Assembly: GCA_964511175.1 (NCBI GenBank)
Contig: CAZEEI010000002.1
Span: 66,063-130,062 of the forward strand
Source: an uncultured Pseudomonadales bacterium
Lineage (GTDB): Bacteria > Patescibacteriota > Microgenomatia > UBA1400 > UBA1396
Direction of reading: 5' to 3'
Length of the DNA: 64,000 nucleotides
Position numbers and translations under genes: made by a program. Positions 41,275 through 63,297 of the stretch are shown here, piece after piece (position 1 is the first letter of the stretch; the number at the start of each line of letters is the position of its first letter). Below the pieces are notes generated by a model. It was not told the DNA's origin. It ran no database searches and saw only the letters and a program-made list of their open reading frames with translations.

Positions 41275-42027
41275 ATGGCCACTATCCATTCTAAATTCGC
41301 ATTAGACCAAATACGTATGGCGGGTCGCATGGCTGCCGAAATTGTGGAAAGTTTGTCGCACCAACTGGAACCAGGTGTTTCGGCTGATTGGATCGATCAG
41401 GAAGCACGGCGTTTGTGCCGCGAGCGCGGTGTGGAGCCGGCCTTCTTGGGCTACCAGGGTTTTCCGGGGGCAATTTGTTTGAGTGTTAATGATGAAGTGG
41501 TGCACGGTATTCCGGCTGCCCAGAAGATTTTGGCGGTCGGCGATTTAGTAAAACTCGATTTTGGGGTGAAATATAACGGTTACTATTCGGATCACTGCCG
41601 GACCTTTGCAGTAGGGCAGGTTAGTCCGATTCACCAAAAACTGTTAACCATTGGTCAGGCAGCCACAAATAATGCGGTTAAACTAGTGCGTCCGGACAAC
41701 CGGATTGGCGACTTGTCTTGGGCTATGCAGTCGACGGCGGAAGAAGCCGGTTTTTCCGTGGTGCGGCTTTACATTGGGCACGGCATTGGTAAACATCTGC
41801 ACGAAGATCCGGAGATTCCAGCTTTTGGGCGACCTGGCACCGGTCCTACTTTACATCCAGATATGGTGATTTGTGTGGAGTGCCAAGTTTGTGAAAAAGG
41901 CTACGCCATCACGCATGATCGCGACGGTTGGACTAGCCGAACCAAAGACGGTGGTTACGTAGTGATGTTTGAGCACATGGTTCATATTACGGCTGGCGAT
42001 CCAGAAATTCTTACGAAGCTGGATTGA
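41275..42027 (+). CDS. map: type I methionine aminopeptidase
   Basis: Metal ligands in [15 protein letters not shown] and the C-terminal E..H pattern. The length of 250 aa fits. Confidence 0.85.
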
Positions 42028-43492
42028 TTTTCGTTAAACGCAAAATATCGACGCCCCAATAATGCAGCCGCGCGTAGCCCATACCGGCAATATTTTTTAA
42101 GTCCTGCCAGGTTTGCGGCGGCTGAGCAGCCAAGCGATGTAAGGTTTGATTAGTTCCCAAAAAATAGGGTGGTATTTGTAAGTTCTGGGCTTTGCGCCGC
42201 CGCAGTTCGCGTAGTTGGGCGAATAATTCCGGCGATGGTTGACTGATCGGTGGTGGTATCCAGGGACGGACATTTTGACAACGGCAGCAGCCGCAGCCAG
42301 GAGTAGTGATTTTAACCAGTGGATTGAGTGAGAAATAGTTAGCCAGCAACTCGGATGCACAGCGGGGTGATTGGGCAAAACGTTGGACCTGGTGGGCGAG
42401 GCGGCGCAAGTGATTGCGACGACCGGGGGCCGCGGCGGACAGAGTGAATTGGTAATTACGCAGTAGATCGTTGTCGCGGTAAAGCAGAACGCACCAGGCT
42501 TCCAGACCATCCCGGCCGCCGCGGCCCGACTCTTGGGCAAAAGCAGCTAAAGAAGTGGGCGGAGTGTGGTGAATAACCAAGCGCACATTGGGTTTATCTA
42601 CTCCCATGCCAAAAGCACTGGTCGCTACCAGAAGAGCGCGTGGTTCGGTTAAGAAACGGTGTAAATGGCGCTGTCTGATTGGGGTGCTCAGGCCAGCGTG
42701 GTAGGGTCGGGTCTGCCTAAAGCCAAATTTTTTAATCAGCTGGGTTAACTCTTCCGTTTCGGAACGGGTAGCCGCGTAAACAATAGCGCTTCCCCAAAGT
42801 TCTTTTTGCCACCAGCGCAAAATACCCAATAATATTGAACGTTTTTGGGCTTCGCTGGTAGGTGTTTCAATAACATAACGCAGATTGGGACGGTAAAAAG
42901 GCAGAGTGAAAAGTTGGGGTTTAATTAGCTGTAGGGAATGACTGATTTCTTTAATGGTGGCAGCTGTAGCCGTGGCGGTCAGAGCGGCTACAACTGGCCG
43001 GTGCGGTAAAGCAGTCAGGAAGTCATGGATTAGCAAATACTCTGGTCGAAAATCGTGTCCCCACTGGCTCAGGCAGTGTGCTTCATCAACACAAACTAGG
43101 GCGATATTTTGCCGCATCAGCAACTGGTGGACTAAAGCAGAATGTAACTTCTCTGGGCTTAGATACAGAATTTTAATGTTTCCCGACTGAATTTTTTGTT
43201 GAACCAGCTGACTCTGCTGTGGTGAAAGTGTACTGTTCCAGGTTACCGAGGGAATATTATGTTTGGTTAATTTGGCGAGTTGATCCTGCATGAGGGATAA
43301 AAGCGGGGAAATGACAATCGTTAGACCATCCAGCAGTGTGGCGGGAAATTGGTAACAAAGTGATTTACCGCCGCCGGTTGGCAAAACGGCCAATGTGTCG
43401 TGGCCGCTAAGGATAGCGTTAATAATTTCTTTTTGAGGCGGGCGGAACGATTGGAGGTGAAAAGTATCGCGGAGGTGGTTTTCTAAATTCAT
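42011..43492 (-). CDS. recQ: RecQ-family ATP-dependent DNA helicase
   Basis: Motif [17 protein letters not shown] box [16 protein letters not shown], the Zn-binding CxxC cluster and a C-terminal HRDC-like tail. Confidence 0.8.
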
Positions 43493-43540
43493 ATTTTCAA
43501 ACTACCGCACAATTCTGACCAAACCTGTACAATAAAAGCT

Positions 43541-45190
43541 ATGCGCAAGGCGCGTACCTGGTTAGTAGCCATTGTTTTGCTGGGGGCAATTTTGCGTCTG
43601 GTTGGTTTTGGGCACGTTCCCGTGGCACCATATTGGGACGAGATGGCGATTTGGGATGACGCCCAGTCGATTTTGGCGACGGGTCGCGACATGCACCACC
43701 GCTCTTGGCTGCAGCCGCTGTTTATTTCCTATGGCGATTTTAAGTTGCCGGTTTATATCTGGCTAACGGCGCTGGGTAGTAATTTAACCCAGGACATCTT
43801 AACGGCGGTGCGTTTGCCTAGTTTGGTGGCTGGCATCCTAAGCATTCCGGTTTTATATTATTTAGCTATTTGGCTTTGGCCACGGCAACGCGGTATTGGT
43901 TTAGCAGCGGCGGGAATAGCGGCGATATTGCCTTGGTCGCTGCATTTTTCGCGGGTTGGTTATGAGGGGCACGTGGGAATGGTTTGGTTACTTAGTTCAG
44001 CAGCGGCATTGTGGTGGAGTCGGCGGCAAAAAATAGGATCGCGGCAGTGGTTGGGTGTTCTGCTTAGTGCGGGTTTAGGTACTTTAGCGGTTTATACCTA
44101 TTTTAGTGTCCGCTTTGTTTTTCCGGTGGTTTTTTTGGGGGTGGCCGGTATCGAATGGCCTCACTGGCGACGCCGCTGGCCGCAGTTAGCCCTAGCTTTA
44201 CTGCTTTGGCTGGCTCTATTGATGCCAATGACACGTGCCGATTTTTACCAAGCCAGCAATCAATTTAGGCTTAGTGCGACCAATATTCTTAATAATCCCG
44301 ACCAGCCCAACATCATTAATTTGTGGCGGTTTCGGTCCGGCAACAACTTATTTAGTCGCCTGGTCTTCAACCGTTATACTTTTACAGCTCACAGTTTAAT
44401 GGTGAACTATGCCACATTTTTAAGTCCTAACTATTTGTGGTTTCAGGGCGACACTAATGTGCGTCATAGCTCTGGTGTGACTGGTATTATGCTGGTGACA
44501 ATGTTCCCACTTTGGGTAGTCGGGTGGCTGTCATTAGTGCGCCGGCAACCCAAACTCGCGATTTATTTTGGTCTTTGGTGGGCAGCCGGCATTCTGCCGG
44601 CCGCCGTACCTACTGATGTCCCGCACGCTCTGCGTTCGCTCAACACCTTGCCAGTGGTGGTTTTAGTTTTGGCTTGGGGCTTGGTAACCATTGCTCAGTG
44701 GTGGCAAACGATGGTGTCTCGTTTTGGTCGTTATCAAATTATCGGTAAATGGGTTGGCGCAGTGGCGCTGTCTTTAGCTATCGGCTTGGAACTGATTCGC
44801 TACGAGCATCACTGGCTCACCGTTTATCCCACTGTTTCGGCGCAAGAGTGGCAGGACGGCTACCTCGCGGCTGCCCGGTATGTTGCTCAAATACGCAATC
44901 AGTACACGTTTGTTTACGTCGATGCCTTTGATGATCGTTTTTTCTTGTATTACCTTCCTTATTCTGGTTTGAGCTGGTCGGCAATTCAAGATTCGCCCAG
45001 CGATGGTTTTAAACGCAGTATCTTCGACAATGTCCGAATTAGTAACATTGATAACTGGGAAGCGTTAGAGCACAATTCGTTAGTGGTTACTACGCCGGAT
45101 CGATTGCCGGCCGACCAAATGGTCGCGGCGACATTAGCCGACTCAACCGGAAAGGACCAATTTGTTACCGTGGTCACGCCTCGCGACTAA
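43541..45190 (+). CDS. GT-C fold membrane glycosyltransferase (GT39/GT83-like)
   Basis: More than 10 TM helices. The first-loop acidic motif is PYWDEMAIWDDAQSI. It is similar to the next ORF. Confidence 0.6.
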   Translation: MRKARTWLVAIVLLGAILRLVGFGHVPVAPYWDEMAIWDDAQSILATGRDMHHRSWLQPLFISYGDFKLPVYIWLTALGSNLTQDILTAVRLPSLVAGILSIPVLYYLAIWLWPRQRGIGLAAAGIAAILPWSLHFSRVGYEGHVGMVWLLSSAAALWWSRRQKIGSRQWLGVLLSAGLGTLAVYTYFSVRFVFPVVFLGVAGIEWPHWRRRWPQLALALLLWLALLMPMTRADFYQASNQFRLSATNILNNPDQPNIINLWRFRSGNNLFSRLVFNRYTFTAHSLMVNYATFLSPNYLWFQGDTNVRHSSGVTGIMLVTMFPLWVVGWLSLVRRQPKLAIYFGLWWAAGILPAAVPTDVPHALRSLNTLPVVVLVLAWGLVTIAQWWQTMVSRFGRYQIIGKWVGAVALSLAIGLELIRYEHHWLTVYPTVSAQEWQDGYLAAARYVAQIRNQYTFVYVDAFDDRFFLYYLPYSGLSWSAIQDSPSDGFKRSIFDNVRISNIDNWEALEHNSLVVTTPDRLPADQMVAATLADSTGKDQFVTVVTPRD

Positions 45191-46751
45191 GCGGCAGTTA
45201 ATTTTCTGGCTAGGTTTGGTTTTGGTGATGGTGGGGCGTTTGTTTTACTATCATTACACCGCTCCCCAGATTTTAAACCAGGATGAGGCGGCCATTCTAC
45301 TTAACGCCCGCTTAATCGCTGAAGCCGGACTTGACGAATGGGGGGTAGCTTGGCCGCTTACCTTTCGTTCCTTTGGTGATTTTAAGTTGCCGGGATACAT
45401 CTACCTGGTGGCTGGTTTGGGTAAAATAATTGGTTTTACCAATTTAACGGTACGTTTGCCTTCTTTGGTGGCTGGGGTAGTACTGTTGTGGCTAGTTTGG
45501 CGTGTCGCCGCCAAATTAACCAACTCGCCTGTGGTAGGATTGGCCGCTGCTTTACTTTTGGCTGTTTCTCCTTGGAGTTGGCACTATGGTACTTTAGGTT
45601 ACGAAGCTCATCTGGGCTTAGTATGGTGGTTGGGTGCTTTATGGTTAATTCTCACCAGCCGTCGATGGCCGGCTTATGTACTAGGCGGATTGATCCTGAC
45701 TTTAGCCTTGTTTACTTATAATGCGCCGCTGATCTTGCTGCCAATTTTGGTGGTAGCAGTAGTTTGTCAAGATTGGGGGCGATGGCGTTTGTTTGGCGCT
45801 AAACTAGTGGTCATTGTGGCAGCCGGCTTGATCGACAGTTGGCTAACTCTACCCGCTACACTACAAAAAGGGGGAATCGCCATTTTTCAGGATCCAACTC
45901 TGCTTGATGCCTATCCGCTCTACCGCGCCAGTTGGTTTGGTTTAGTCCAGACCTGGCTAGGTAACAAGTACGTTTACTTTATCGGTATTGCGATCAGTCA
46001 TTGGTGGCAACATTTCTCCTGGCAGTTCTTGGTTATGCAAGGCGGCAACAATCCTTGGCACACCATTCCCCAGACCGGACACTTAGTTTTCCTTTTACCG
46101 CTTTTACTAGCGATCGGTTTAGGGACGACTGGCCGACGTCTTTACTTAGCTTTGGTGCAGCGGCGCTGGTGGGTCGTCCGCCGGGAAGTAATACTGTTGG
46201 TTTTGTTCATTGGGAGTCTGGCCCCGGCGGCAATTACGGCGGACGCCCCGCACGCCACCCGCAGTTTATTTTTTTTCGTGATGGCTACCGTGTTGGGAGC
46301 CAGGGGACTAGTTGATGCACAAGACCGTTACTGCCGTTCTGGTTTACCCGCCAAATTAAAACACGTCCTAACTTTGATTTTGGCCGGCAGCTTAATTCTT
46401 GGTTTCACTTGGTGGTGGGTGCCAGCAACTCAGCACTGGCAACGCTCAGCTCAGGCTCGCTGGAATATTGGTTTAGAGACAGCCTTGCACGACTCCCGAA
46501 TTGACCAAGCCCAACGCGTTTTTATCGTTGATCCTAATGGGGTGCTGTATACGCTGGTGGCTACCACTAAGATGGTGCCGGCCAGTGTGTTCTACCAAAC
46601 GGTTAAACGTTCGCCGCCGGATACGGCTGGTTTGGTACGCGTGGAGAGTTTAGATCGTTACGAATTTATTTTCCAAACTAGCGACGCCCGCGCCCCCGGA
46701 TTGCTTTTGCAGCCCCGCAGTAACACCCAGTGGGATATCATCGAATTATGA
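45162..46751 (+). CDS. GT-C fold membrane glycosyltransferase (GT39/GT83-like), tandem paralogue
   Basis: The first loop NQDEAAILLNARLIAEAGLDEWG...FGDFKLPGYIYL parallels ...FISYGDFKLPVYIWL in the preceding gene. Confidence 0.6.
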   Translation: MLPWSRLATKRQLIFWLGLVLVMVGRLFYYHYTAPQILNQDEAAILLNARLIAEAGLDEWGVAWPLTFRSFGDFKLPGYIYLVAGLGKIIGFTNLTVRLPSLVAGVVLLWLVWRVAAKLTNSPVVGLAAALLLAVSPWSWHYGTLGYEAHLGLVWWLGALWLILTSRRWPAYVLGGLILTLALFTYNAPLILLPILVVAVVCQDWGRWRLFGAKLVVIVAAGLIDSWLTLPATLQKGGIAIFQDPTLLDAYPLYRASWFGLVQTWLGNKYVYFIGIAISHWWQHFSWQFLVMQGGNNPWHTIPQTGHLVFLLPLLLAIGLGTTGRRLYLALVQRRWWVVRREVILLVLFIGSLAPAAITADAPHATRSLFFFVMATVLGARGLVDAQDRYCRSGLPAKLKHVLTLILAGSLILGFTWWWVPATQHWQRSAQARWNIGLETALHDSRIDQAQRVFIVDPNGVLYTLVATTKMVPASVFYQTVKRSPPDTAGLVRVESLDRYEFIFQTSDARAPGLLLQPRSNTQWDIIEL

Positions 46752-47539
46752 AAACAAAGCACCAACATTCTTTATCAGTGGTTTACGCCGTCTACAATGA
46801 AGCAGCCAACTTGGCTCGTTCGCTGGACAGCATTAAGGATTTAGCCGATGAAATCATTGTGGTAGACGGTTCTTCCACCGACCAAACCAGGGAAATTGCC
46901 AAACAATACGGCGCTCAGATTATTAAGACGACCAATAAACCTATTTTTCACATCAACAAACAGATGGCCATGGCCGCGGCGCGAGGCGAGTGGACGCTGC
47001 AGATGGATGCCGACGAGGTAGTGGATGGTGAGATGCGGCAAGACATTAAACGCTTGGTTAATGCACCGTTGGACGCGCAACCGGCTGCTTTTTGGCTGCG
47101 GCGGCGCAACTGGTTTTTGGGTCGGTTTTTGACCAAAGGCGGACAGTATCCAGATCCGGTGATTCGTTTTTACCAAACTGGACGTGCCCATTTGCCCATG
47201 AAATCGGTTCACGAACAAATGGCAGTGGACGGTGAAGTCGGCTGGTTGGCTGGCCATCTTTTGCACTATAACGCCCCCAGTTTTAGTGACTACTTGCGCA
47301 AGGCCAACACCTATACTTCACTAACGGCTGGGGAAATGCTGGAACATAAAGTACCGCTTAATCTTTTCACCTTCGGCCGTTATTGGTATTGGTTGCCACT
47401 GAAAACTTTTTTCTCTCTTTATTTTCGCCATCTGGGTTTAGTCGACGGTTTTCCCGGCCTGATGTTTGCCCTTTTTTCCGGATTACACTACCGATTGGCC
47501 TACATTAAGTATTGGGAGAAGAAACGGACGACGACGTGA
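46748..47539 (+). CDS. GT2-family glycosyltransferase
   Basis: SVVYAVYNEA...VVDGSSTDQT...DAD(E) DxD motif. The ATG overlaps the upstream stop as ATGA. Confidence 0.7.
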   Translation: MKTKHQHSLSVVYAVYNEAANLARSLDSIKDLADEIIVVDGSSTDQTREIAKQYGAQIIKTTNKPIFHINKQMAMAAARGEWTLQMDADEVVDGEMRQDIKRLVNAPLDAQPAAFWLRRRNWFLGRFLTKGGQYPDPVIRFYQTGRAHLPMKSVHEQMAVDGEVGWLAGHLLHYNAPSFSDYLRKANTYTSLTAGEMLEHKVPLNLFTFGRYWYWLPLKTFFSLYFRHLGLVDGFPGLMFALFSGLHYRLAYIKYWEKKRTTT

Positions 47540-48615
47540 GAGTTTTACTGGATACTACACCGTTACTAAATCAGAATCGCGCACGCGGTGTGGGTCGCTA
47601 TACGCAAGAACTATTGCAAGCTTTGCGACAATTAACGGATACGGATGAGCCGCTAATAGTCCAAGCGACCCATGAGGTAGGAATCATACTTGATCCTAGT
47701 CAAGATTTCGACTTAATTCATTATCCCTACTTTGATTTGTTTTTTAGTACCCTACCCAAACCATCGCGTTTGCCGGTGGTAGTAACCGTCCATGATGTCA
47801 TCCCGCTTTTGTTCCCCCAACATTATCCACCCGGTCTGAAGGGCAAATGGCGCTTTTGGCAACAAAAACGCCACTTACAACAAGCTACCGCTGTGATTAC
47901 CGACTCGGAAAATTCCAAACGGGATATTAACCAATACTTGGATATTCCGGCGGCGCGGATTTACGTTACGCCCTTGGCCGCTAATCCAGCATTGCAACCG
48001 CCCACCGAATACGCGCAACAAAAAGCCAAACAAGCACTAAATTTGCCCAGCCAGTATGTTTTGTATATCGGCGATATTAACTACAACAAAAATTTGCCAA
48101 CCTTATTGTTGGCCCTCACCCAGTTGCCGGCCGAAATTCACCTCGGTGTGGTGAGCCAAACTTTTAATGACACTACCATTCCGGAAGGGCAAATGTTGGC
48201 GGAATTAATTCACAAAAATGATTTGGCAGAAAGAGTACACGTTTGGTCCATTCCGCCGGAAGATACTAATACTTTGGCGGCAGTAATCGCCGCCGCTAAA
48301 TGTTTGGTCCAGCCATCCTTATACGAAGGTTTTGGTTTGCCGGTTTTAGAAGCGATGCAAGTAGGAACAGTGGTGGTAGCGGCTAACACCTCCTCTTTAC
48401 CGGAAGTGGCGGGAGAAGCAGCTTTACTAGTTGAACCCACTATTGTTGGCCTAACTAACGGTTTGCAGGAAGCAGTAAGCTGGCGTGGGGAAGAACGAGA
48501 GAAAAGAATAAAATCAGGTCAACAACAGGCGGCTCGTTTCTCTTGGGAACAGACAGCCCGTTTAACTTACCAGGTTTATCAGGAGGCGCAGCGACTGGCT
48601 GGGCGGGGAAAATGA
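47536..48615 (+). CDS. GT4-family glycosyltransferase
   Basis: N-terminal GVGRYT motif and C-terminal EGFGLPVLEA. A GTG start overlapping the upstream stop (GTGA) is proposed. Confidence 0.65.
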   Translation: MRVLLDTTPLLNQNRARGVGRYTQELLQALRQLTDTDEPLIVQATHEVGIILDPSQDFDLIHYPYFDLFFSTLPKPSRLPVVVTVHDVIPLLFPQHYPPGLKGKWRFWQQKRHLQQATAVITDSENSKRDINQYLDIPAARIYVTPLAANPALQPPTEYAQQKAKQALNLPSQYVLYIGDINYNKNLPTLLLALTQLPAEIHLGVVSQTFNDTTIPEGQMLAELIHKNDLAERVHVWSIPPEDTNTLAAVIAAAKCLVQPSLYEGFGLPVLEAMQVGTVVVAANTSSLPEVAGEAALLVEPTIVGLTNGLQEAVSWRGEEREKRIKSGQQQAARFSWEQTARLTYQVYQEAQRLAGRGK

Positions 48616-50300
48616 TGAAAAAGATAATTAAAATCAACTGGTCAGTGGTTTGGGTTTGGCTATTGGCGTTGCTGTTGGCGGTAGTCTTAACGAAAGTTTA
48701 CTGGGGAAACGCTTTTCCCTACACGCACGATGGAGCCAATCATTTAGCGCGTTTCGTTAATTATGCCGCCGCTTTGCGGGAAGGCCAGTTTCCGCCGCGT
48801 TTTGCTCCTTATATCTATTCCGGCTATGGTTTTCCCATCTTTAATTATAACTACCCGCTGGCCAACATTTTGGCTTTACCTTGGTTAGCGATCGGTTTTC
48901 ATACGGAGCGCGTGTTTGCGATTCTCATTACCAGTAGTTTAACCGTCGGCATTGTGGCTGTGTTTTATTCCCTGCGTCACTATTTTAAGCGCAGCGCTAG
49001 CGTAATTGGCACGCTGACTTACGCCTTGTCTTGGTACTTAAATATCGGTTTAGTTTACCGGGGCGGAATTGGGGAAGTTATCGCCTACGCCCTAACGCCG
49101 ATAGTTTTTTGGTGTTTGTACCGTTGGCAGAAAAAACCACAACTTTACGCCTGGTTTTTGGCTACTTTTAGTTTGGCCGTTTTACTTTTGGCTCATAATG
49201 TTATGTCCTTGTTTAGTTTCGGTTTACTGGGTTTATTTAGTTTGAATTGGCTAATTGACCACCGCCTTACTTGGCGATCTTGGCTCTTATTGTGGCTGGT
49301 ACCGGTTGGCTTGACGCTCTGGTTTTGGTTGCCGGCCTTAGCCGAAATGAATCTTGTCGCTCTAGCGGGTGATGCTTTGCAAACCGAAACCAGCCAACAC
49401 GTGGTGCCACTGTCCCAACTGCTTTTTTCACCTTGGCGATTCGGTTTTTCGCGCACGGGGTCACTCAAATCATTGGGTTTTGGTCAGGGATCGCTGTTTA
49501 TTACGGTGGCGTTTTGGGCAATTGTCGGGCTAATTCAAGAGAGTTGGGAGTGGTCTTGGCGTAGGGCAACCTGGCCGTCGGCGCAGGGTCGTTTACGCTG
49601 GATACTGGCAGTGGTGTTGGCGGGCAGTTTTTGGCTCGCCAGTGATTGGTCGCAAATTGTTTGGCAGACGGTGAGCCCACTGGCCGTTTTGCAGTTTCCG
49701 TGGCGCTGCTTATTTATCACGAGCTTATTATTAGCTCCGACCGCCGCTTGGGTTTACCAGCGCTATACTTCAGGTTGGATTAAACTTGGCTTATTGGTTG
49801 CCGTGGTTTGGCAGATGCGGTGGGTGATTAACTTAAAGCCGGTTGATTATTTCCATTATGATCAGCAGTATTATCTCCAATTTCCCCATAGTACGACCGC
49901 CCGCAATGAGAACCGACCACTGACTTTTTCGCCAGATGCCATAGTTTCCTGGCAACCTCAACCAACTGTTGCCACCGGTGCCGCCACAACTAATGTTTTG
50001 GTTTGGCTTGGTTCCCGGCGTGAGTATACGGTTCAGGTAACCACTGACGCTATTCTCACCGAACCAACGGTTTATTTTCCTGGCTGGCAAGTTAAAGCCG
50101 ATGACCAGTTGCTCACGCCGGAATTAACACCTCAATTGGGTGGTCTGGTAGCGTATCGTTTGCCAGCTCGCCGCGAACCTTACCTAATTACTTCCGGTTT
50201 TACCGGCCGTACGATGGCGCGCCAGTGGGGGGAAATTATTTCCGTTCTGACAGCGGTTAGTTTACTAGTAGCACTAGTTTGGCGGGGGAGGCGACGGTGA
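48612..50300 (+). CDS. polytopic membrane protein, GT-C-like putative glycosyltransferase
   Basis: More than 12 TM helices. A conserved-looking first loop (THDGANHLARF...GQFPPRFAPYIYSGYGFPIFNYNYPL) is reminiscent of GT-C/YfhO-type enzymes. The ATG overlaps the upstream stop. Confidence 0.4.
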   Translation: MMKKIIKINWSVVWVWLLALLLAVVLTKVYWGNAFPYTHDGANHLARFVNYAAALREGQFPPRFAPYIYSGYGFPIFNYNYPLANILALPWLAIGFHTERVFAILITSSLTVGIVAVFYSLRHYFKRSASVIGTLTYALSWYLNIGLVYRGGIGEVIAYALTPIVFWCLYRWQKKPQLYAWFLATFSLAVLLLAHNVMSLFSFGLLGLFSLNWLIDHRLTWRSWLLLWLVPVGLTLWFWLPALAEMNLVALAGDALQTETSQHVVPLSQLLFSPWRFGFSRTGSLKSLGFGQGSLFITVAFWAIVGLIQESWEWSWRRATWPSAQGRLRWILAVVLAGSFWLASDWSQIVWQTVSPLAVLQFPWRCLFITSLLLAPTAAWVYQRYTSGWIKLGLLVAVVWQMRWVINLKPVDYFHYDQQYYLQFPHSTTARNENRPLTFSPDAIVSWQPQPTVATGAATTNVLVWLGSRREYTVQVTTDAILTEPTVYFPGWQVKADDQLLTPELTPQLGGLVAYRLPARREPYLITSGFTGRTMARQWGEIISVLTAVSLLVALVWRGRRR

Positions 50301-51694
50301 GCAAATGGTCCCAAATTTGGTCGCGGCAGTTAATTATTCCGGTTGTCTTGGTGTTACTTGGTATCTTTTTGCGCAGTTGGCAATATTGGTCTTTACCCGT
50401 GATTGGCGAGACCCAAGATGAAGCAGCCTGGACGATGCTTGGCGCCAGCTTGCTACAAACTGGCCAGCCAGCTAGTTGGTCTTTTTTTGCGGGTTACCAG
50501 ACTTACGCCGTACTAGAAAGTGATGGCGCCAAGTTTCGGGTAGTTCGTCCGGTTTTGGATCACCCGCCGTTATTTAGTTTACTGCCAGGTGCCGTCCAAA
50601 CCATCATGGGCCATCCTTGGTTAAGTATCCCGTCAATCAAATTGGCGCGTTTCCCCCTCATCGTACTTGGTGCGCTGAATTTGATTCTTTTCGCCGTTTG
50701 GCTTTATCGTTTACCAACCAAAATGATTGGTAATTTTGGTCGAGCGGCGGCCCTCCTGGTTTGGGCGACTGCCCCCAGTTTTGTTCTGCTTTCCCGTTTA
50801 GTAGTGAGTGAAAACTTAATCGTTACTGGAACGCTAGGTTTATTATTAGCCACCACAATTAAATCAGCCCGCGGTCGGTGGCTACAGTGGGTAATTTTGC
50901 TTTTACTACCGCTGACCAAAATATCTGGTCTGGCGCTAGCCGCTGGCGAAGTAGTAGCCAATTGGTTAATCCAGCCTACTCGCCGTTGGTCGGTAATAAT
51001 CGTTGCCGCCGCTGGTTTGGGTTTACTATTACTTTACGCAGGGCTAATCGACTTTAATCTATTTTGGCAAATTCAGGTACAACAAGCCCAACGCGATACC
51101 GGTTTATTAACCCTGTTTAGTTCCCAGCTCTGGCAGCCGACCCTAGTCCAAAAGCAGTTCGCCGATGTTTGGATTACGCTGGGTTATCTAGCCACCTTTG
51201 GTTGGCTGTTATTGAGCGCCAAAGAAGATAAACACGAAAGGCAATTGGCAATCCTTTTTATAGCACAATTGTCGTTTATGGTTCTCAGCGTTGGTGAGTT
51301 AACAGTACATGGTTGGTACCGGATTGTTTTATTGCCGTTTTTTGCTTACAGTCTAGGTTGGCTGGCCGAACGAGTTAACCGGGAACAAAACTGGTTAGGT
51401 TTAGCACTGGCTTGGTTATTAATGATGCCGGTAGTACGCTTGGGTTGGCTATCTTGGGACAATCAGTCCTTATTTGCCCATCAAGCTGTAGCGGGCAAAG
51501 TGATATTACTTTTAGCGGGCGTTAGCTTAGCGGGGATGACCTTCCCCCTGATTTGGCGTCGTCGTCTTTGGCAGGGATTGGGTTTGGTCTTGGTGCTGGC
51601 GGTTCTTTCTAGTAACATACTGACGATACTCTGTTTGCGCGATACTACCCTGTGGCAAGACGCGCTATATTTGGAGCAAGGTATTCGACCTTAA
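50297..51694 (+). CDS. GT-C fold membrane glycosyltransferase (PMT_2/ArnT-like)
   Basis: A multi-TM protein with a first-loop acidic motif (GETQDEAAWTM). A GTG start overlapping the upstream TGA is proposed. The ORF track gives a TTG at 50279. Confidence 0.45.
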   Translation: MSKWSQIWSRQLIIPVVLVLLGIFLRSWQYWSLPVIGETQDEAAWTMLGASLLQTGQPASWSFFAGYQTYAVLESDGAKFRVVRPVLDHPPLFSLLPGAVQTIMGHPWLSIPSIKLARFPLIVLGALNLILFAVWLYRLPTKMIGNFGRAAALLVWATAPSFVLLSRLVVSENLIVTGTLGLLLATTIKSARGRWLQWVILLLLPLTKISGLALAAGEVVANWLIQPTRRWSVIIVAAAGLGLLLLYAGLIDFNLFWQIQVQQAQRDTGLLTLFSSQLWQPTLVQKQFADVWITLGYLATFGWLLLSAKEDKHERQLAILFIAQLSFMVLSVGELTVHGWYRIVLLPFFAYSLGWLAERVNREQNWLGLALAWLLMMPVVRLGWLSWDNQSLFAHQAVAGKVILLLAGVSLAGMTFPLIWRRRLWQGLGLVLVLAVLSSNILTILCLRDTTLWQDALYLEQGIRP

Positions 51695-51709
51695 GAAGGG
51701 GGAGAGTTT

Positions 51710-52636
51710 ATGGCTAGGATTATAGTTACCGGTGGTGCCGGTTTTATTGCTTCGCACGTAGCCGATGCTTACGTGGCGGCTGGACACACCGTGTTTATTT
51801 TAGATAATCTTTCGACCGGTAAAAAGGAATACGTTAATCCCCAAGCTCAGTTTTACCAAGTCGATATTACCGACCGCGAACAGGTTACCCAGGTTTTGCG
51901 GGAAATTAGGCCGGAAGTAATTAACCACCATGCCGCCCACATCCAAGTCGGTCATTCGGTGGAAGATCCCCATTTTGATGCCCAGGCTAATATTTTGGGT
52001 GTACTCAACATTATGGAAGCAGTGAAAGATTTGGGAACAGTGCAGCGGGTTATTATGGCTTCCACCGGTGGTGCCATGTATGGCCACCAGAGCGTGCCTT
52101 TTAACGAAACGATGTTGCCGCAGCCGCTGGCTCCTTACGGTATTTCCAAGCGGGCGGGCGAAATGTACCTTTATTTCTACCAGGAGCAGTACGGTATTCC
52201 CTACGTGGTGCTGCGTTACTCCAACGTCTACGGACCGCGGCAGAATCCCCACGGTGAATCAGGAGTGATTGCTATTTTCTTGGATCGTCTCCTGCGCGGT
52301 GAGCAGCCGATTATTTTGGGCGATGGCAGCCATACTCGTGATTATGTTTTTATTGAAGATGTCGTGCAGGCCAACGTTTTAGCTTTAAGTACCGATCAAA
52401 CTGGTGAATTTAACATTGGTACTAATACCGAAACTAGTACGAACGAAGTTTTCCACAAAGTGATTGCCGCTATGCAGGCTAATGTACCGGAGCAGCATGG
52501 GGAGCCGCGTCCGGGAGAACAAGTACGTAGTGTTTTGGATTATACTAAGGCCCAACGTGAGCTGGGCTGGTCGCCCACCGTGAGTTTTGACGACGGCGTG
52601 GCCAGGACAGTGCAGTACTTTTTAGCGCAAAAATGA
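51710..52636 (+). CDS. NAD-dependent sugar-nucleotide epimerase/dehydratase (GalE-like)
   Basis: TGGAGFIASH NAD loop and catalytic YxxxK (YGISKRAGE). Confidence 0.75.
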   Translation: MARIIVTGGAGFIASHVADAYVAAGHTVFILDNLSTGKKEYVNPQAQFYQVDITDREQVTQVLREIRPEVINHHAAHIQVGHSVEDPHFDAQANILGVLNIMEAVKDLGTVQRVIMASTGGAMYGHQSVPFNETMLPQPLAPYGISKRAGEMYLYFYQEQYGIPYVVLRYSNVYGPRQNPHGESGVIAIFLDRLLRGEQPIILGDGSHTRDYVFIEDVVQANVLALSTDQTGEFNIGTNTETSTNEVFHKVIAAMQANVPEQHGEPRPGEQVRSVLDYTKAQRELGWSPTVSFDDGVARTVQYFLAQK

Positions 52637-53313
52637 ACGGTTCGATTGCCGTCATCATCCCTGCCTACAACGAAGCCGCCACTTTAGGGGCGGTGTTGCA
52701 GGTAGTGCGGTCGCTGGTTTGGCCCGTGATAGTGGTGGATGATGGTTCAACCGATAACACTTACCAGATCGCTCAACAGGCGGGTGTCCACCTTTTGGCC
52801 CACCGCTCCAATTTAGGTAAAGGGGCGGCTATGACCACTGGCGCCGAATATGCTTTTCAACACCTAGGTGCGGCGGCAATCATCTTTTTGGACGGTGACG
52901 GCCAGCATGATCCGCAAGAGTTGCCGCGTTTTGTCGAACTACTGGAAAATGGGGAGCCGGTGGTTTTGGGGGTCCGTCAATTAGGTGGTGCCATGCCGCG
53001 GAGTCGTATTTTGGGTAATTATCTAATTTCGCTGGTTAATTGTTGGTTGTTCGGTGTTCATATTCCCGATATTCCCAGTGGCTATAAAGCTTTTTCACGG
53101 GAAGCCTACCAACAGCTGGATTGGGAGGCCAGTGGGTATCAAGTGGAGATGGAAATTGCCGCCCGCCTAGCAGTTTCAGGCTTATCTTTTGGTGTAGTAC
53201 CGATCAAAACACTTTACTTTGATCTACAGCGTGGTATGAATTTTCTTGATTCCTGGCAAGCCATAATGCACCTGCTGATTTTGCGTTTGCGCCTGCGTAT
53301 ACTAAGAGGGTGA
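52633..53313 (+). CDS. GT2-family polyprenyl-phosphate glycosyltransferase (Dpm1/GtrB-like)
   Basis: VIIPAYNEA...VVDDGSTDNT...DGDGQHD, typical of Dpm1/GtrB-type enzymes that make lipid-linked monosaccharide donors. The gene is short, at 226 aa. Confidence 0.65.
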   Translation: MNGSIAVIIPAYNEAATLGAVLQVVRSLVWPVIVVDDGSTDNTYQIAQQAGVHLLAHRSNLGKGAAMTTGAEYAFQHLGAAAIIFLDGDGQHDPQELPRFVELLENGEPVVLGVRQLGGAMPRSRILGNYLISLVNCWLFGVHIPDIPSGYKAFSREAYQQLDWEASGYQVEMEIAARLAVSGLSFGVVPIKTLYFDLQRGMNFLDSWQAIMHLLILRLRLRILRG

Positions 53314-54491
53314 AAGTGTGGTCCAAAGTACTTGGCTGGATAGTTATTTGGCGGGTGGTTTTGCTGATGGTGGCGGGGTTGGCGGCTCGGTATGTGCCAC
53401 TAGTGGTTGATTTTACTCCTTCTTGGACTGTGTTTGGCATGTACGAACCTTATTGGGCCTGGATTTGGGGCAACTTTGATGGGGTGGTTTTCATGTTAAT
53501 CGCCCAGTCCGGTTACTCAGCCGAGCAGTTGCCGTTTTTTCCACTGCTGCCCCTCCTGATTGCCGCTACTCACTACTTGTTGGCTTTGCCGCACTTATAC
53601 GCCGGCATACTGGTTTCTGCCATGGTTTTTTTGGTGGCCCAGTATTACTTGTGGCAATTGTTAAAGCTGGATAAAAAAACGAACCTATACTGGTTGTTGT
53701 TAGCCGTCATGTTATTTTTCCCTACCTCACTTTTTTATACGGCAATTTATGCCGACGCCCTCTTTTTGGCTTTAGCTAGTGCCACGCTATACTACGCGCG
53801 ACGGCAACAGTGGGGGTGGGCGTCGGTAGTGGGAATGCTGGCCGCGCTGGCACGCTTGAACGGTTTGGCGCTAATTGCGGTAGTTGGTATGGAGTATCTC
53901 TTGACACAGTCGCCGCAGCTGGCTAAACACTGGGATTGGCGTTTACTTGGTCAAACGACGGTAAAGGCTTTACAGCCGCGTCGACTTTGGCGCAGCGGCA
54001 TCTTATGGTGTTTACTGATTCCAGCCGCCTTGGTTGGTTACTTAATTTATATCCAGTTGTCTTTTGGCGACTGGCACCTTTTCTTCACCGGGGTGACGGT
54101 TTGGCACCGGGATCACTTAGTTTTCCCACTACAGACTTTTTGGCGTTACTTTAAGATACTGGTACTTTACCCGCGTTGGTCGTTTACCTACGCGGTGGCC
54201 GCGCTAGAGGCCGGTTTTACCGGCTTATATCTGTCGGCAATGGCTTGGTCGTGGGGTAAGATTCGGTTGAGTTATTGGTTAATGATTTTCTGTCATTTAC
54301 TAATTCCGGTGGTAACCGGCACCCTGCAAGGTATGCCGCGTTACGGCCTACACCTCTATCCCTTGTTTCTCATTTACGCTCTATGGCTACACTCCAAGCC
54401 GCGGTGGGTGAAAATTGGTTGGTTGGCTCTATCGGCTTTAATTTCGATCTTTTATCTAGCCGGTTATACACGCGGTTATTTTGTGGCGTAA
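53310..54491 (+). CDS. polytopic membrane protein, Mannosyl_trans2 (PIG-V-like, GT76-type) candidate
   Basis: More than 9 TM helices. The first loop WGNFDGVVFMLIAQSGY resembles the WD..HYL.IA..GY signature of PIG-V-type mannosyltransferases. Confidence 0.4.
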   Translation: MKVWSKVLGWIVIWRVVLLMVAGLAARYVPLVVDFTPSWTVFGMYEPYWAWIWGNFDGVVFMLIAQSGYSAEQLPFFPLLPLLIAATHYLLALPHLYAGILVSAMVFLVAQYYLWQLLKLDKKTNLYWLLLAVMLFFPTSLFYTAIYADALFLALASATLYYARRQQWGWASVVGMLAALARLNGLALIAVVGMEYLLTQSPQLAKHWDWRLLGQTTVKALQPRRLWRSGILWCLLIPAALVGYLIYIQLSFGDWHLFFTGVTVWHRDHLVFPLQTFWRYFKILVLYPRWSFTYAVAALEAGFTGLYLSAMAWSWGKIRLSYWLMIFCHLLIPVVTGTLQGMPRYGLHLYPLFLIYALWLHSKPRWVKIGWLALSALISIFYLAGYTRGYFVA

Positions 54492-54493
54492 GT

Positions 54494-55075
54494 TTAAGGT
54501 CGAAAAAGTTTCCGTAACTTAGTTAATTCGGTTTTATTTTTGCTGAGCCGCAAAATCTGTAATGCTATGTCCCAGTCGCGGAAATTTTCTTGAGTTGTTA
54601 AGTCGACAAATTGGTCAAAGGTAAACTCCAGGAGCTTAATTTTTTCACCCACATCAAGTGATGGTGGTTGTATCTGCCGACAGCCTTTGGCGATAAAGTT
54701 ATAAATAGCCCAGTCGATTTTTTCCAGTGGCTGTTCGGCTTGCCAGAGAATCCAGTGGTCGGCAACCATCCCGGCTTCTTCCAAGAGTTCGCGCTGGGCA
54801 GCGGCCAAGGGAGTTTCCTGGGGATCCAGGCGTCCGCCCAAAGTGCCAATGAATGGTTCAACACCCGGCTGGCTTTGTTCGGATAAAATTAGCCGACCAT
54901 CATCGGTGATGGGAATGACACCAACCGTATCGGTACGTCTTACCTTTTCAAAGATGGCCTTACTGCCGTCGAACATAGTTTGTTCCCACTGGTAGATGGT
55001 AAAGACCTGGCCGCTAAACACTTTTTTAGCGTGATTCGGGATAGGTTGACGGGAAAGAGGGCGTTTAAGATCCAT
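54494..55075 (-). CDS. NUDIX hydrolase
   Basis: Nudix box GGRLDPQETPLAAAQRELLEEAGM. Confidence 0.65.
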   Translation of the reverse strand: MDLKRPLSRQPIPNHAKKVFSGQVFTIYQWEQTMFDGSKAIFEKVRRTDTVGVIPITDDGRLILSEQSQPGVEPFIGTLGGRLDPQETPLAAAQRELLEEAGMVADHWILWQAEQPLEKIDWAIYNFIAKGCRQIQPPSLDVGEKIKLLEFTFDQFVDLTTQENFRDWDIALQILRLSKNKTELTKLRKLFRP

Positions 55076-55089
55076 AGTGTTTATTTTTT

Positions 55090-55581
55090 TTAAATCTTTT
55101 TATAAAGTGAGTACTGCCGGGTAACGAATCCGGTTTTTTGGTAAAAATCTAAACCCTGACGATTAAAAGACGAACACTGCAAGCTAATATAATTCAAGCC
55201 CAGATTGCGCAAGAAAGTTTCCACCTCAGTCATTAGTTTTTGGCCGACACCCCTGCGGCGATAATTAGGGCTGACGTATAGCTCAATAACCTCGCCGTAT
55301 TTAGTAATATTGGTGTCAAAATAATGGTCGGTGACTTTTTTGAAAGTGACAAAGCCAATCAGTTTGCTACCGCTTTCGGCTAATAAAACGTAAGGATCAC
55401 TCTTAGTAATGGCTTTTTTGAGATACTGTGTGAACTTCCGATTCAATTGTGGGGAACTGGGCACATAGTAAACCGGATCGAGGTCGTAGTGGTAATCGCA
55501 TTGACCCTGCCAGAGAGTAAGCAAATCCGGTAAATCACTAAGGCTGGGTTTCCTAATATTGATTTTATAGTCGCGGCTCAT
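55090..55581 (-). CDS. GNAT-family N-acetyltransferase
   Basis: Acetyl-CoA motif A RRRGVGQKLM (R/Q-x-x-G-x-G/A) and GNAT-size length of 163 aa. Confidence 0.7.
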   Translation of the reverse strand: MSRDYKINIRKPSLSDLPDLLTLWQGQCDYHYDLDPVYYVPSSPQLNRKFTQYLKKAITKSDPYVLLAESGSKLIGFVTFKKVTDHYFDTNITKYGEVIELYVSPNYRRRGVGQKLMTEVETFLRNLGLNYISLQCSSFNRQGLDFYQKTGFVTRQYSLYKKI

Positions 55582-55583
55582 AG

Positions 55584-55904
55584 TTATTTGGTGAGTTTGG
55601 CCAAATATTCTCTACCCAGGAAAAGCCCGCCGATAACCATCAAGAGAACAGATAAAATCATTGATTCCCAACGAGAGAAAATCAACAGCAACAATCCCAC
55701 AGCGATAAAAACCAATCCTCCCAAGCGTTCGTATTTCCAGGCAAGAGCGGTCAACAGAGCCAAGATGAAATTGGGGATTAAGTGCATTAATAAAGCGATG
55801 GGCCATTGGGGTTGATCAAAAACATCCAGGGCGAATAAAGCGAGGAAGGCATTAAATAAGATTGCTAGGACGCGGGGGAGGTAGTAGAGAGTTTTTTTGA
55901 GCAT
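55584..55904 (-). CDS. small hypothetical membrane protein (3 TM)
   Basis: A hydrophobic 106-aa ORF with no motifs. Confidence 0.3.
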   Translation of the reverse strand: MLKKTLYYLPRVLAILFNAFLALFALDVFDQPQWPIALLMHLIPNFILALLTALAWKYERLGGLVFIAVGLLLLIFSRWESMILSVLLMVIGGLFLGREYLAKLTK

Positions 55905-55938
55905 GATTCCATTCTACCACTTGGGAAAAATTAACAAG

Positions 55939-56682: not shown

Positions 56683-56689
56683 AAATATC

Positions 56690-56968: not shown

Positions 56969-56969
56969 A

Positions 56970-61103: not shown

Positions 61104-61170
61104 ATTGGGAACATCATACCGCACCTTCTGTACTTCTTGACATATGTGACATATATGACACAATGATGCA

Positions 61171-63293: not shown

Positions 63294-63297
63294 ATTT

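Follow-up and report, generated by a model that had tools for sequence, protein, structure and literature searches.

What does a dense run of membrane glycosyltransferase genes build in a bacterium of this kind? Positions 43541-54491 (11 kb, plus strand) of the window, by which we mean the whole 64-kb stretch of DNA analysed, hold nine co-directional ORFs, tightly packed and with no long ORF-free gap (Table 1). The block had been read as an extracytoplasmic pathway for protein O-glycosylation or for mannosylation of a glycolipid or lipoglycan. All six 4-nt overlaps named in that reading were found, with in-frame starts at 46748 (ATGA), 47536 (GTGA), 48612 (ATGA), 50297 (GTGA), 52633 (ATGA) and 53310 (GTGA), each overlapping the upstream stop. 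G1 and G2 overlap by 29 nt if TTG 45162 is the start of G2, and G6 and G7 are separated by 15 nt. Database gene calls for identical proteins give the same start for G6 (50297, 465 aa) and place those of G5 (48615, 561 aa) and G9 (53316, 391 aa) one and two codons, respectively, off the window calls. Overlaps of 4 nt are common throughout the window (e.g., 4375/4378, 9342/9345, 19878/19881, 22437/22440, 24064/24067, and 37494/37497), and such coupling is therefore nothing unusual; it is the recurrence of the syntenic cluster in at least 15 independent loci that marks the block as a genuine unit.

Table 1. Genes of the glycosylation block, with their positions in the window and assignments.
Gene	Position	Strand	Product
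G1	43541..45190	+	549-aa polytopic GT-C, PMT_2 family, C-terminal extracytoplasmic domain
G2	45162..46751	+	529-aa PMT_2-family GT-C, tandem paralogue of G1; start uncertain
G3	46748..47539	+	263-aa soluble GT2 (GT-A fold) glycosyltransferase, cytoplasmic
G4	47536..48615	+	359-aa soluble GT4 (GT-B fold, retaining-type), cytoplasmic
G5	48612..50300	+	562-aa GT-C, PTPS_related (PF10131) lineage
G6	50297..51694	+	465-aa divergent PMT_2/ArnT-like GT-C
G7	51710..52636	+	308-aa SDR nucleotide-sugar 4-epimerase, GalE-like
G8	52633..53313	+	226-aa GT2 without TM anchor, candidate polyprenyl-phosphate sugar synthase
G9	53310..54491	+	393-aa polytopic, Mannosyl_trans2 (PIG-V/Gpi18-like) GT-C lineage

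The presence of five GT-C membrane enzymes was borne out, directly for two of them and through homologue families for the others, two of which (G5 and G6) also have structure models. G1 and G2 match Pfam PMT_2 at 5e-8 (33.7 bits) and 1.4e-9 (38.8 bits), both above the gathering score of 26.1 bits, and are 29% identical over 532 aa (E 5e-26), in agreement with their description as tandem paralogues. In G1, a basic N-terminus and TM1 precede WDE33-34 in loop 1; E34, the S63xGDxK68 motif, R91, E142, H309, H362, and R365 are at least 90% conserved among 36 homologues from the loci, and D41E42 and the F71GDxK75 motif of G2 are at least 92% conserved among 25. The labels 'GT39/83-like' and 'PIG-V-like' given in the initial annotation hold at the level of superfamily or distant family, but not for anything closer. 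A sixth GT-C enzyme proposed at 19878 does carry an LDE motif after TM1, but it scores 22.2 bits against PMT_2, below the gathering score.

G5, G6, and G9 have no direct match in Pfam or NCBIfam, even at E<=10, and profile searches against PDB sequences returned nothing meaningful for them; their labels can thus be verified only via homologue families and, for G5 and G6, structure models. PTPS_related (PF10131) is matched by 13 of the 46 aligned G5 homologues (and GT-C_AftD by one), PMT_2 and PMT by 10 and 5 of 35 for G6, and Mannosyl_trans2 (PF04188) and PMT_2 by 23 and 4 of 54 for G9. Each of these families also shows one stray transporter model beside its GT-C clan models, and HMM searches placed no polytopic protein of the block in any transporter family. 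PTPS_related, PMT_2, PMT, and Mannosyl_trans2 are members of the Pfam clan CL0111 GT-C (PMC7801869).

Foldseek searches with the AF2 models of G5 and G6 (pLDDT 92.3 and 94.3) confirmed the predicted fold, returning only GT-C structures at probability 1.0. The top matches of G5, which has a C-terminal beta-sandwich domain (~residues 450-530) followed by a final TM helix, are AglB, PglB, STT3, AftD, ArnT, AftA, Pmt4, and DPY19, with the best superposition on AftD (rmsd 5.5-6 Å over ~440 columns). G6 is closest to ArnT 5f15 (E 1.9e-7), followed by AglB, PglB, STT3, ALG9, Pmt4, Emb, Aft, and PimE. The first unrelated folds appear at E>0.2 and probability <0.3, with transporters at 0.12 or below. 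In all five proteins, the first loop, which follows TM1, carries an acidic motif; it is conserved in four families, and the Asp of G5 is invariant. Loop 1 contains invariant H39, D40, G41, N43, and H44 in G5, near-invariant D41E42 and invariant D88HPPLF93 in G6, and invariant D57 (of an NFDG motif) in G9, where FFP76-78 is invariant as well. The five enzymes form four mutually distant lineages, namely PMT_2 (G1/G2), PTPS_related/AftD-like (G5), PMT_2/ArnT-like (G6), and PIG-V-like (G9), with hhalign probabilities between GT-C families of 21% and 13%; these lineages are retained as one-to-one orthologues, and recent duplication does not account for them.

The soluble enzymes also match their first descriptions. 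G3 is a Glycos_transf_2 protein (1.7e-19) without a TM segment that among solved structures is closest to GmaR (4e-12) and SunS, and G4 matches Glycos_transf_1, Glyco_transf_4, and related models and is nearest to MshA-type enzymes (3.8e-16). G7, of the SDR epimerase/dehydratase type, matches Epimerase/GDP_Man_Dehyd at 1e-60, and its closest solved relatives are the UDP-glucose 4-epimerases 4zrm (7e-88), 2p5u, and 7ys8, in keeping with a GalE-like enzyme; its 170 bits lie below the GalE equivalog cut-off of 262. G8 (Glycos_transf_2, 3e-28), which contains LDGDGQHDP, is a candidate synthase of a polyprenyl-phosphate sugar, as proposed: it matches P. furiosus DPMS (3e-13), ArnC (1e-10), and GtrB (5e-4) in the PDB and the NCBIfam models AglJ (1e-32), PpgS (6.5e-30), and Dol-P-hexose transferase (5e-17), all below their equivalog cut-offs. 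The suggested mannose has no support here; the coupling to G7 points to a Gal/GalNAc-type sugar instead.

Conservation of the block takes two forms. In seven Woesebacteria-type loci (L003-L008 and L081), the order RecQ (minus strand), G1 to G7, (G8), G9 is collinear at 37-77% identity, and Map precedes the block in six of them. A rearranged form occurs in about nine Paceibacterota-type loci (L009, L011, L013, L016, L021, L023, L026, L037, and L079), where G1-G5, (G9), G7, (G8) is kept, G6 is divergent, and G5 and G9 are either fused or adjacent. G5-G9 fusions account for 8 of the 120 homologues listed, in addition to a 946-aa ORF of L009, and the C-terminal half of one such fusion (P0068) aligns end to end with G9 (E 3e-30). 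The best-conserved members in syntenic loci are G3 (51-76% identity) and G4 (39-69%), always located between GT-C genes. G8, in contrast, is absent from four of the seven collinear clusters (L005, L006, L008, and L081) and is hence not a constant component; where it is absent, the donor synthase may be elsewhere or different.

The best reading, in which we place moderate confidence, is that polyprenyl-phosphate sugars are used outside the cytoplasm to assemble, step by step, a glycan linked to lipid or to the wall. G7 would epimerize a UDP-hexose or UDP-HexNAc at C4, and G8 would load the resulting sugar onto undecaprenyl phosphate at the inner face, while on the cytoplasmic side G3 and G4 would make a short primer linked to lipid. 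Both lipid intermediates would then be flipped, and the five GT-C enzymes would attach sugars taken from polyprenyl-phosphate donors in successive, non-redundant steps, with G5 and G9 acting as a pair. Most probably the acceptor is not protein but a glycan of this kind, with a lipoglycan-like product made much as lipomannan and arabinan are in actinobacteria. We favor a glycan because G3 and G4 are so well conserved and invariably lie between GT-C genes, because each of the four GT-C lineages is retained as one-to-one orthologues, and because fusion and 4-nt coupled adjacency of G5 and G9 link two GT-C types. The same conclusion is drawn from the Polysacc_synt (Wzx-like) flippase found 3' of the epimerase in variant clusters L079 and L013, the former also with an NDP-sugar pyrophosphorylase, from the superposition of G5 on AftD, and from another genome in which a G5-like gene adjoins a WecA/MraY-like transferase and a UbiA prenyltransferase. 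The absence of G8 from four clusters counts against this reading, as do a canonical PMT (PF02366 and PMT_4TMC) inserted in the L021 cluster and the examples of PMT_2 enzymes and the streptococcal Pgf system, in which this set of genes (GT2, epimerase, and GT-C) is seen to be capable of glycosylating proteins. An initiating phosphoglycosyl transferase is missing from the cluster, as is a flippase from the 64-kb window, and the literature searched has no report of a lipoglycan from Patescibacteria.

The closest parallel to stepwise glycan assembly is that of actinobacterial PIM/lipomannan/LAM and arabinogalactan (Ppm1, PimA/PimB', PimE, MptA-C, EmbA-C, and AftA-D), in which the polyprenyl-phosphate sugar comes from a GT2, and cytoplasmic GT4 enzymes prime a lipid acceptor that several different GT-C enzymes extend outside the membrane (PMC3485146). 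The block encodes enzymes of these kinds, and AftD, Emb, AftA/B, and PimE are among the structures matched by the models of G5 and G6. However, sequence orthology was not detectable in the profile searches against PDB sequences, the actinobacterial genes are scattered instead of forming one compact operon, a 4-epimerase here replaces the mannose/arabinose donor routes, and the host is a Patescibacterium without known lipoglycan. In the galactosamine modification of arabinogalactan (Rv3631/Rv3632/Rv3779), M. tuberculosis PpgS (Rv3631) converts UDP-GalNAc to polyprenyl-P-GalNAc for a GT-C transferase (PMC3485146). G8 is likewise a short GT2, matching positions 3-202 of the 226 in the PpgS profile, and UDP-GalNAc could be supplied by the coupled G7; its 104 bits, however, are far short of the equivalog cut-off of 370, the window shows no small membrane partner resembling Rv3632, and there are five GT-C enzymes here versus one.

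Two further systems share single components. Eukaryotic GPI mannosyltransferase II (PIG-V/Gpi18) resembles G9 through the PF04188 matches in its family and the invariant loop-1 Asp, and some G9 relatives are named 'Gpi18-like mannosyltransferase' in source records, whereas G9 itself falls below the model, is bacterial, and has a PTPS_related GT-C as its fusion partner or coupled neighbor, and other GPI pathway genes are absent. ArnC/ArnT, which transfer aminoarabinose to lipid A, are resembled through the ArnC match of G8 and the ArnT match of G6, but at only 15-16% sequence identity; Ara4N synthesis genes are missing and a monoderm Patescibacterium has no lipid A.

The main rival, which we consider rather unlikely, is protein O-glycosylation, in which G7 and G8 would supply a polyprenyl-phosphate sugar and each GT-C enzyme would pass it on to Ser/Thr residues, each in different proteins outside the cytoplasm. 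Polyprenyl-phosphate sugars serve protein O-glycosylation in actinobacterial Ppm1/Pmt and in streptococcal Pgf and GtrB/PgtC2. Candidate acceptors here would be S-layer proteins, pilins, and membrane-anchored enzymes. The Pgf system of S. mutans (PgfS, PgfE, PgfM1, and PgfM2) also unites in one cluster a 4-epimerase, a synthase of the GT-A type, and GT-C enzymes whose catalytic motifs lie outside the cytoplasm, and places GalNAc on Ser/Thr-rich regions (PMC11092751); G8 matches the PgfS model at 7e-16, although its 58 bits fall short of the cut-off of 500. PgfM1 and PgfM2 are, however, YfhO-type, for which the block has no match, and the block adds a soluble GT2 and GT4 and three more GT-C lineages. 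The PMT_2 and PMT matches of G1, G2, and the relatives of G6 are consistent with protein acceptors, as are the canonical PMT of L021, the protein- or peptide-glycosylating activity of GmaR and SunS, and the pilin glycosylation predicted in Saccharibacteria (PMC11623550). Against this, an extracytoplasmic transfer of one sugar leaves the strictly conserved cytoplasmic G3 and G4 without a function, the four distant one-to-one lineages and the G5-G9 fusion suggest sequential steps on one product, and the Wzx-like flippases also argue for a glycan. A Pfam scan of the block proteins found no MIR or TPR acceptor-binding domain, and the window ORFs have no Ser/Thr-rich tract, a weak point, given that a 64-kb window covers only part of the genome.

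It is less probable still, and in our view improbable, that several Gtr-type systems here decorate an existing wall polymer (peptidoglycan, teichoic-acid-like, or rhamnan-like), each GT-C adding one branch sugar. The block shares the logic of CsbB/GtcA/YfhO, GtlA/GtlB, GacI/GacL, and phage Gtr, in which undecaprenyl phosphate receives a sugar from a cytoplasmic GT2 and, once flipped, gives it up to a GT-C enzyme for transfer on the outer side (PMC8035078, PMC5836110), and it adjoins murC-murB-murA in the window and L081. That linkage is lost in Paceibacterota-type loci, however, and neither a GtrA/GtcA-like small flippase ORF in the window nor TagF- or LtaS-type backbone-polymer synthesis genes among the window proteins scanned were found. 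In addition, the TM hairpin at the C-terminus of GtrB has no counterpart in G8, and five transferases per synthase is far above any described Gtr-type system. Finally, that the polytopic proteins are transporters or structural membrane proteins in chance juxtaposition is very improbable: the missing direct Pfam, NCBIfam, and PDB-sequence matches of G5, G6, and G9 would fit, but the fold searches, homologue families, conserved loop-1 acidic residues, and synteny all contradict it.

The complexity of the block, once thought unusual for a small genome, is typical of the lineage and not unusual within it. The contrast between collinear and rearranged loci, the fusion or adjacency of G5 and G9, the Wzx-like flippase in two variants, and the absence of G8 from four collinear clusters are new. 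In this ultra-small, Woesebacteria-like bacterium, the block is an operon of Microgenomates (Woesebacteria type) that is conserved among uncultured relatives, and its product is probably a cell-surface glycan.

Nine ORFs (G1 to G9) occupy positions 43541-54491 of the window, all on the + strand, and encode five polytopic proteins with the hallmarks of GT-C glycosyltransferases together with four soluble enzymes. As the initial annotation had described, the in-frame starts of G3, G4, G5, G6, G8 and G9 each overlap the preceding stop by 4 nt, and identical database proteins begin within 0-2 codons of the starts called here. These overlaps indicate an operon, yet they are ordinary for this genome, because 4-nt overlaps are also frequent elsewhere in the window. 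A promoter and terminator consensus scan of 43300-55200 returned sites no more numerous than in shuffled sequence, and the limits of the operon are therefore set solely by gene spacing and strand. The block lies among genes for housekeeping and the cell wall (MraW, an FtsI-like PBP, Mur ligases, MurB, MurA and Map, as well as RuvCAB, RF, FtsEX and three tRNAs).

Block genes and other features of the window, with two gene fusions in related loci
Feature	Position	Strand	Length	Character
RecQ-like helicase	42011-43492	-		divergent; upstream limit of block
G1	43541 (start)	+		polytopic; loop-1 motif WDE
G2	45162 (start)	+		polytopic; loop-1 motif QDE
G3	46748 (start)	+	263 aa	GT2, no TM segment; nearest solved relatives GmaR and SunS
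G4	47536 (start)	+	359 aa	GT4; closest to MshA-type enzymes
G5	48612 (start)	+		polytopic; loop-1 motif THDG
G6	50297 (start)	+		polytopic; loop-1 motifs QDE and DHPPLF
G7	51710 (start)	+	308 aa	extended SDR; GxxGxxA(G) and YxxxK motifs in sequence
G8	52633 (start)	+	226 aa	GT2, no TM anchor; candidate polyprenyl-phosphate sugar synthase
G9	53310 (start)	+		polytopic; loop-1 motif NFDG
NUDIX and GNAT genes	downstream of block			convergent
Small multi-TM ORF	12380-12772
Second, smaller glycosylation cluster	17411-23585	+		directly upstream of ruvC-ruvA-ruvB
SDR epimerase of second cluster	18895	+
GT-C-like protein of second cluster	19878	+		PMT_2-like; LDE after TM1
Pfam-less ORF	30400-31644	+	414 aa	between FtsI-like PBP and Mur ligase
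Pfam-less ORF	31732-33819	+	695 aa	between FtsI-like PBP and Mur ligase
Small-gene run	55584-57356	-		downstream of block
DUF7670 protein	55584-55904	-		four TM segments
Small multi-TM ORF	56690-56968
Cytochrome b5-like protein	56970-57356	-		in small-gene run
ThyX-like ORF	59469-61163	-	564 aa	two weak Thy1 (ThyX) stretches
GlmU-like gene	62019-63350	-	443 aa	sugar nucleotidyltransferase and hexapeptide domains
G5-G9 fusion, locus L009	979-3819	-
G5-G9 fusion, locus L079	10001-12814

The nearest relatives of the block proteins are found in Candidatus Woesebacteria, which NCBI places in the Microgenomates group of Patescibacteria, and in Pacebacteria/Paceibacterota, Roizmanbacteria and 'Patescibacteria group' MAGs. 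Many MAG records named 'uncultured Pseudomonadales bacterium' (L005-L008, L012, L016, L017 and others among the related loci) carry Woesebacteria-type synteny and Patescibacteria-like genes, and the organism names of those records look wrong.

The claim that the five polytopic proteins are GT-C enzymes was borne out along several lines. G1 and G2, paralogues at 29% identity, both reach the PMT_2 gathering score. Direct Pfam/NCBIfam scans of G5, G6 and G9 gave nothing usable, even at E<=10, and searches of PDB sequences by phmmer and by profile (with G1 and G5, and with the family alignments of G5, G6 and G9) matched nothing meaningful. Their homologue families support, at the level of sequence, the predicted GT-C membership of these three proteins: PTPS_related (PF10131) is matched in 13/46 members of the G5 family (best E 3.8e-16) and GT-C_AftD in 1/46; PMT_2 (PF13231) in 10/35 members of the G6 family and PMT (PF02366) in 5/35; and Mannosyl_trans2 (PF04188) in 23/54 members of the G9 family (best E 3.4e-15), with PMT_2 in 4/54. 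The models PF10131, PF13231, PF02366, PF04188 and AftD all belong to the Pfam GT-C clan CL0111 (PMC7801869).

All five proteins have 6-9 strong TM segments in a hydropathy scan and share a basic N-terminus, TM1 and then a long loop bearing an acidic motif, the arrangement by which GT-C enzymes are recognised; by the positive-inside rule, this loop would be extracytoplasmic. Within each family alignment the motif residues are conserved to at least 90%, in some cases without exception, namely E34 and GDxK in G1, D41E42 and GDxK in G2, H39-D40-G41 in G5, D41E42 and D88HPPLF93 in G6, and D57 in G9. As to the predicted use of lipid-phosphate-linked donors by the five, the block encodes only a candidate donor synthase, G8. 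Comparison of family profiles by hhalign gave probabilities of 21% for G9/G6 and 13% for G5/G6, values that, the families being only remotely related, speak neither for nor against a shared fold; being so weak, they indicate that the block combines four GT-C lineages distant from one another and not duplicates of recent origin.

AlphaFold2 models of G5 and G6, each built from its family alignment, reached pLDDT 92.3 and pTM 0.92 (G5) and pLDDT 94.3 and pTM 0.93 (G6). When searched against the PDB with Foldseek, both matched solved GT-C enzymes, and these exclusively, at probability 1.0, which answers, for these two proteins, the call for a structural check of the fold. The G6 model matches ArnT, AglB, PglB, STT3, ALG9, Pmt4, EmbA/B/C, AftA/B and PimE; the G5 model, which additionally has a C-terminal beta-sandwich domain and a final TM helix, matches AglB, PglB, STT3, AftD, ArnT, AftA, Pmt4 and DPY19. 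The assignment of the polytopic proteins to transporter families, named at the outset as the finding that would overturn the GT-C claim, did not materialise: transporters appear in the two Foldseek lists just at E>0.2 and probability <=0.12, and a transporter reading was rejected on the fold matches of G5 and G6. A role for the block outside glycosyl transfer is all but excluded.

The finer family labels fared less evenly. The GT39 label stands for G1 and G2 as far as PMT_2 and falls for PMT proper, since the Pfam scan found no PF02366, PMT_4TMC or MIR in G1, G2 or G6; of the 35 distant relatives of G6, only five match PF02366, and a canonical PMT in the cluster of locus L021 illustrates what a real PMT match looks like. 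The PIG-V label finds support in the G9 family through the PF04188 matches of its members, G9 itself giving no match. An oligosaccharyltransferase identity for G5 was considered and rejected: its top Foldseek matches are OSTs, but G5 is without WWDxG, and neither G5 nor its 46 relatives give an STT3 Pfam match. G1 scores only 25 bits against archaeo_STT3, for which the cut-off is 450.

Among the soluble enzymes, G8 corresponds to the Dpm1-like synthase of the initial annotation, a call that is supported by its best matches in both PDB (P. furiosus DPMS 5mlz, 3e-13; ArnC, 1e-10; GtrB, 5e-4) and NCBIfam (AglJ, PpgS and Dol-P-hexose transferase), which are polyprenyl- or dolichyl-phosphate sugar synthases. 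G8 contains LDGDGQHDP, which we take to be the DxDxQ signature characteristic of the polyprenyl-phosphate sugar synthase class, and it combines domain similarity and signature of the DPM1/GtrB/ArnC/PpgS/AglJ type. Its scores fall below the equivalog cut-offs of AglJ (113.7 of 325 bits), PpgS (104.2/370), Dol-P-hexose transferase (61.5/375) and PgfS (58.3/500), and no block gene reaches the equivalog threshold of a named NCBIfam family. The three best solved relatives of G7 are all UDP-glucose 4-epimerases (4zrm, 2p5u and 7ys8; E 7e-88, for 4zrm, to 8e-70); its scores against the GalE model TIGR01179 (169.7 bits, cut-off 262.3) and the dTDP-glucose 4,6-dehydratase (RmlB) model (187.9 bits) both lie under the equivalog cut-offs. 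Eight kilobases downstream of the block lies a GlmU-like gene, a possible source of UDP-HexNAc for it.

Several other loci of the window deserve mention. The second, smaller glycosylation cluster comprises a GT4, an SDR epimerase, a PMT_2-like GT-C protein and two further GT4 genes, with 4-nt overlaps; its epimerase and GT4s share 27-30% identity with G7 and G4, respectively. The PMT_2-like protein had been put forward as a sixth GT-C enzyme; it carries LDE after TM1, and its PMT_2 match is sub-threshold. The two Pfam-less ORFs lie in a division/cell-wall cluster, and the longer is highly charged and coiled-coil-like; both were rejected as glycosylation acceptors, being without signal or Ser/Thr-rich features. 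The run of small genes also holds a 247-aa ORF without a Pfam match, an ORF with two TM segments that matches PepSY_TM faintly, and the cytochrome b5-like protein, which is unexpected for a fermentative ultra-small bacterium. The ThyX-like ORF is about twice the usual ThyX length and has a conserved counterpart of 548 aa in locus L081.

To follow the block across genomes, we scanned GTDB species representatives once with the G6 profile and compared the resulting 76 loci by tblastn with all block proteins and by two gene-context look-ups, which revealed two arrangements. In the first, the Woesebacteria type, the gene order of the window recurs in L003-L008 and L081 at 37-77% identity, running RecQ(-), G1, G2, G3, G4, G5, G6, G7, (G8), G9, preceded by Map except in L003. 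The 4-nt overlaps are retained in L081, where a Zip transporter gene lies on the opposite strand between G7 and G9, and G8 is missing from 4/7 of these clusters (L005, L006, L008 and L081). In the second arrangement, the Paceibacterota or Microgenomates type (L009, L011, L013, L016, L021, L023, L026, L037 and L079/L080), the order is G1-G2-G3-G4-G5-(G9)-G7-(G8), with G6 divergent and adjoining G1. Variant clusters of this kind carry a Polysacc_synt (Wzx-like) flippase gene directly 3' of the epimerase (L079, L013), an added NDP-sugar pyrophosphorylase (L079), or an additional GT2, an additional GT4 and a DegT aminotransferase (L016). Relatives of G6 outside Patescibacteria (cyanobacteria, Dormibacteria and Chloroflexota) are solitary, with no cluster.

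Within the second arrangement, neighbouring G5 and G9 genes overlap by 4 nt in L023 and L037, and elsewhere the two are fused in a single protein of about 925-946 aa, including the L009 ORF and P0069 in L079; such fusions account for 8/120 of the G5 homologues listed (P0052, P0062, P0068, P0069, P0084, P0085, P0097 and P0117). The fusion joins two GT-C enzymes, one resembling G5 (PTPS_related) and the other G9 (PIG-V-like), and together with the adjacency provides Rosetta-stone evidence that G5 and G9 act together. In the context of another G5 homologue, P0073 (JGI sample 3300072015, 953-kb contig), a further patescibacterial genome has a G5-like PTPS_related gene and a 400-aa gene directly after Glycos_transf_4 (MraY/WecA-like) and UbiA-family prenyltransferase genes, reminiscent of the mycobacterial decaprenyl-phosphate ribose/arabinose donor route.

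With enzyme fold and family, conserved putative catalytic residues, operon structure, synteny and fusion established, we infer the pathway steps that lie beyond them. G7 would epimerise a UDP-hexose or UDP-HexNAc, G8 would place the resulting sugar on undecaprenyl phosphate, and G3 and G4 would synthesise a lipid-linked primer in the cytoplasm; intermediates would then cross the membrane via a flippase encoded outside the window, and the five GT-C enzymes would add sugars in successive extracytoplasmic steps. We give about an even chance to the product being a lipid- or wall-linked glycan, a reading favoured on four grounds: G3 and G4, both soluble, show the strongest conservation of all members and lie between GT-C genes; four distant GT-C lineages are kept one-to-one; some relatives carry G5 and G9 as a fusion; and Wzx-like flippases occur repeatedly among the variant clusters.

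Protein O-glycosylation is a serious, if somewhat unlikely, rival. It draws on the PMT_2 enzymes and on the streptococcal Pgf cluster, in which a GT-A enzyme, an epimerase and two GT-C enzymes, parts like those seen here, glycosylate Ser/Thr-rich regions (PMC11092751), but a search for candidate acceptors among the ORFs of the window, a small share of the genome, found no Ser/Thr-rich tract. Decoration of a wall polymer by a Gtr-type system (PMC8035078) is less likely, and on our estimate distinctly improbable: no ORF for a small four-TM flippase like GtrA/GtcA occurs in the window (again a small share of the genome), whose small multi-TM ORFs number three (the DUF7670 protein and two others), none annotated as GtrA.

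The block shares its logic with actinobacterial lipomannan, LAM and arabinogalactan assembly and with PpgS/Rv3779, Pgf and CsbB/YfhO-type systems. PpgS, which G8 resembles in size and in having no TM anchor, synthesises the polyprenyl-P-GalNAc that the GT-C enzyme Rv3779 uses (PMC3485146). Assignment of the block to GT39, STT3 or Gtr failed in each case. The literature searched on Patescibacteria/CPR/Microgenomates describes neither this cluster nor a multi-GT-C operon in Patescibacteria, and glycosylation in Saccharibacteria has been termed unexplored (PMC11623550). Undescribed in that literature is the composition, which Microgenomates conserve: five GT-C enzymes of four lineages, among them a PIG-V-like enzyme of bacteria that is coupled to a PTPS_related partner. 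The enzymology is familiar and GT-C genes in such genomes are unsurprising by themselves; as it obeys known principles, the block extends a known kind of system and does not found a new one.

It is conceivable, though quite unlikely, that the product is a new membrane-anchored lipoglycan of Microgenomates, in which enzymes of four GT-C lineages, acting outside the cell as a fixed relay, would extend a GT4/GT2-primed membrane lipid, possibly scavenged from the host; within the relay, a PTPS_related/AftD-like enzyme and a PIG-V-like one would be physically coupled. If so, the pathway would be the bacterial equivalent of lipomannan or GPI-core assembly, and its product would cover these ultra-small cells as a major surface layer that mediates host attachment.

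To our knowledge, almost nothing is known of the cell covering of Patescibacteria (CPR) past peptidoglycan, S-layers and pili. With a genome of roughly 1 Mb, the commitment of about 11 kb to a compact, lineage-conserved operon with five predicted extracytoplasmic glycosyltransferases marks a surface glycoconjugate that is likely important for envelope integrity or host attachment. Three GT-C lineages that have so far received little characterisation (PF10131, bacterial PF04188 and the G6 clade) gain a pathway context, and the block offers experimental handles, with G7 and G8 leading to the identity of the donor and the G5-G9 pair to complex formation, and so a concrete way into CPR cell surface biology.
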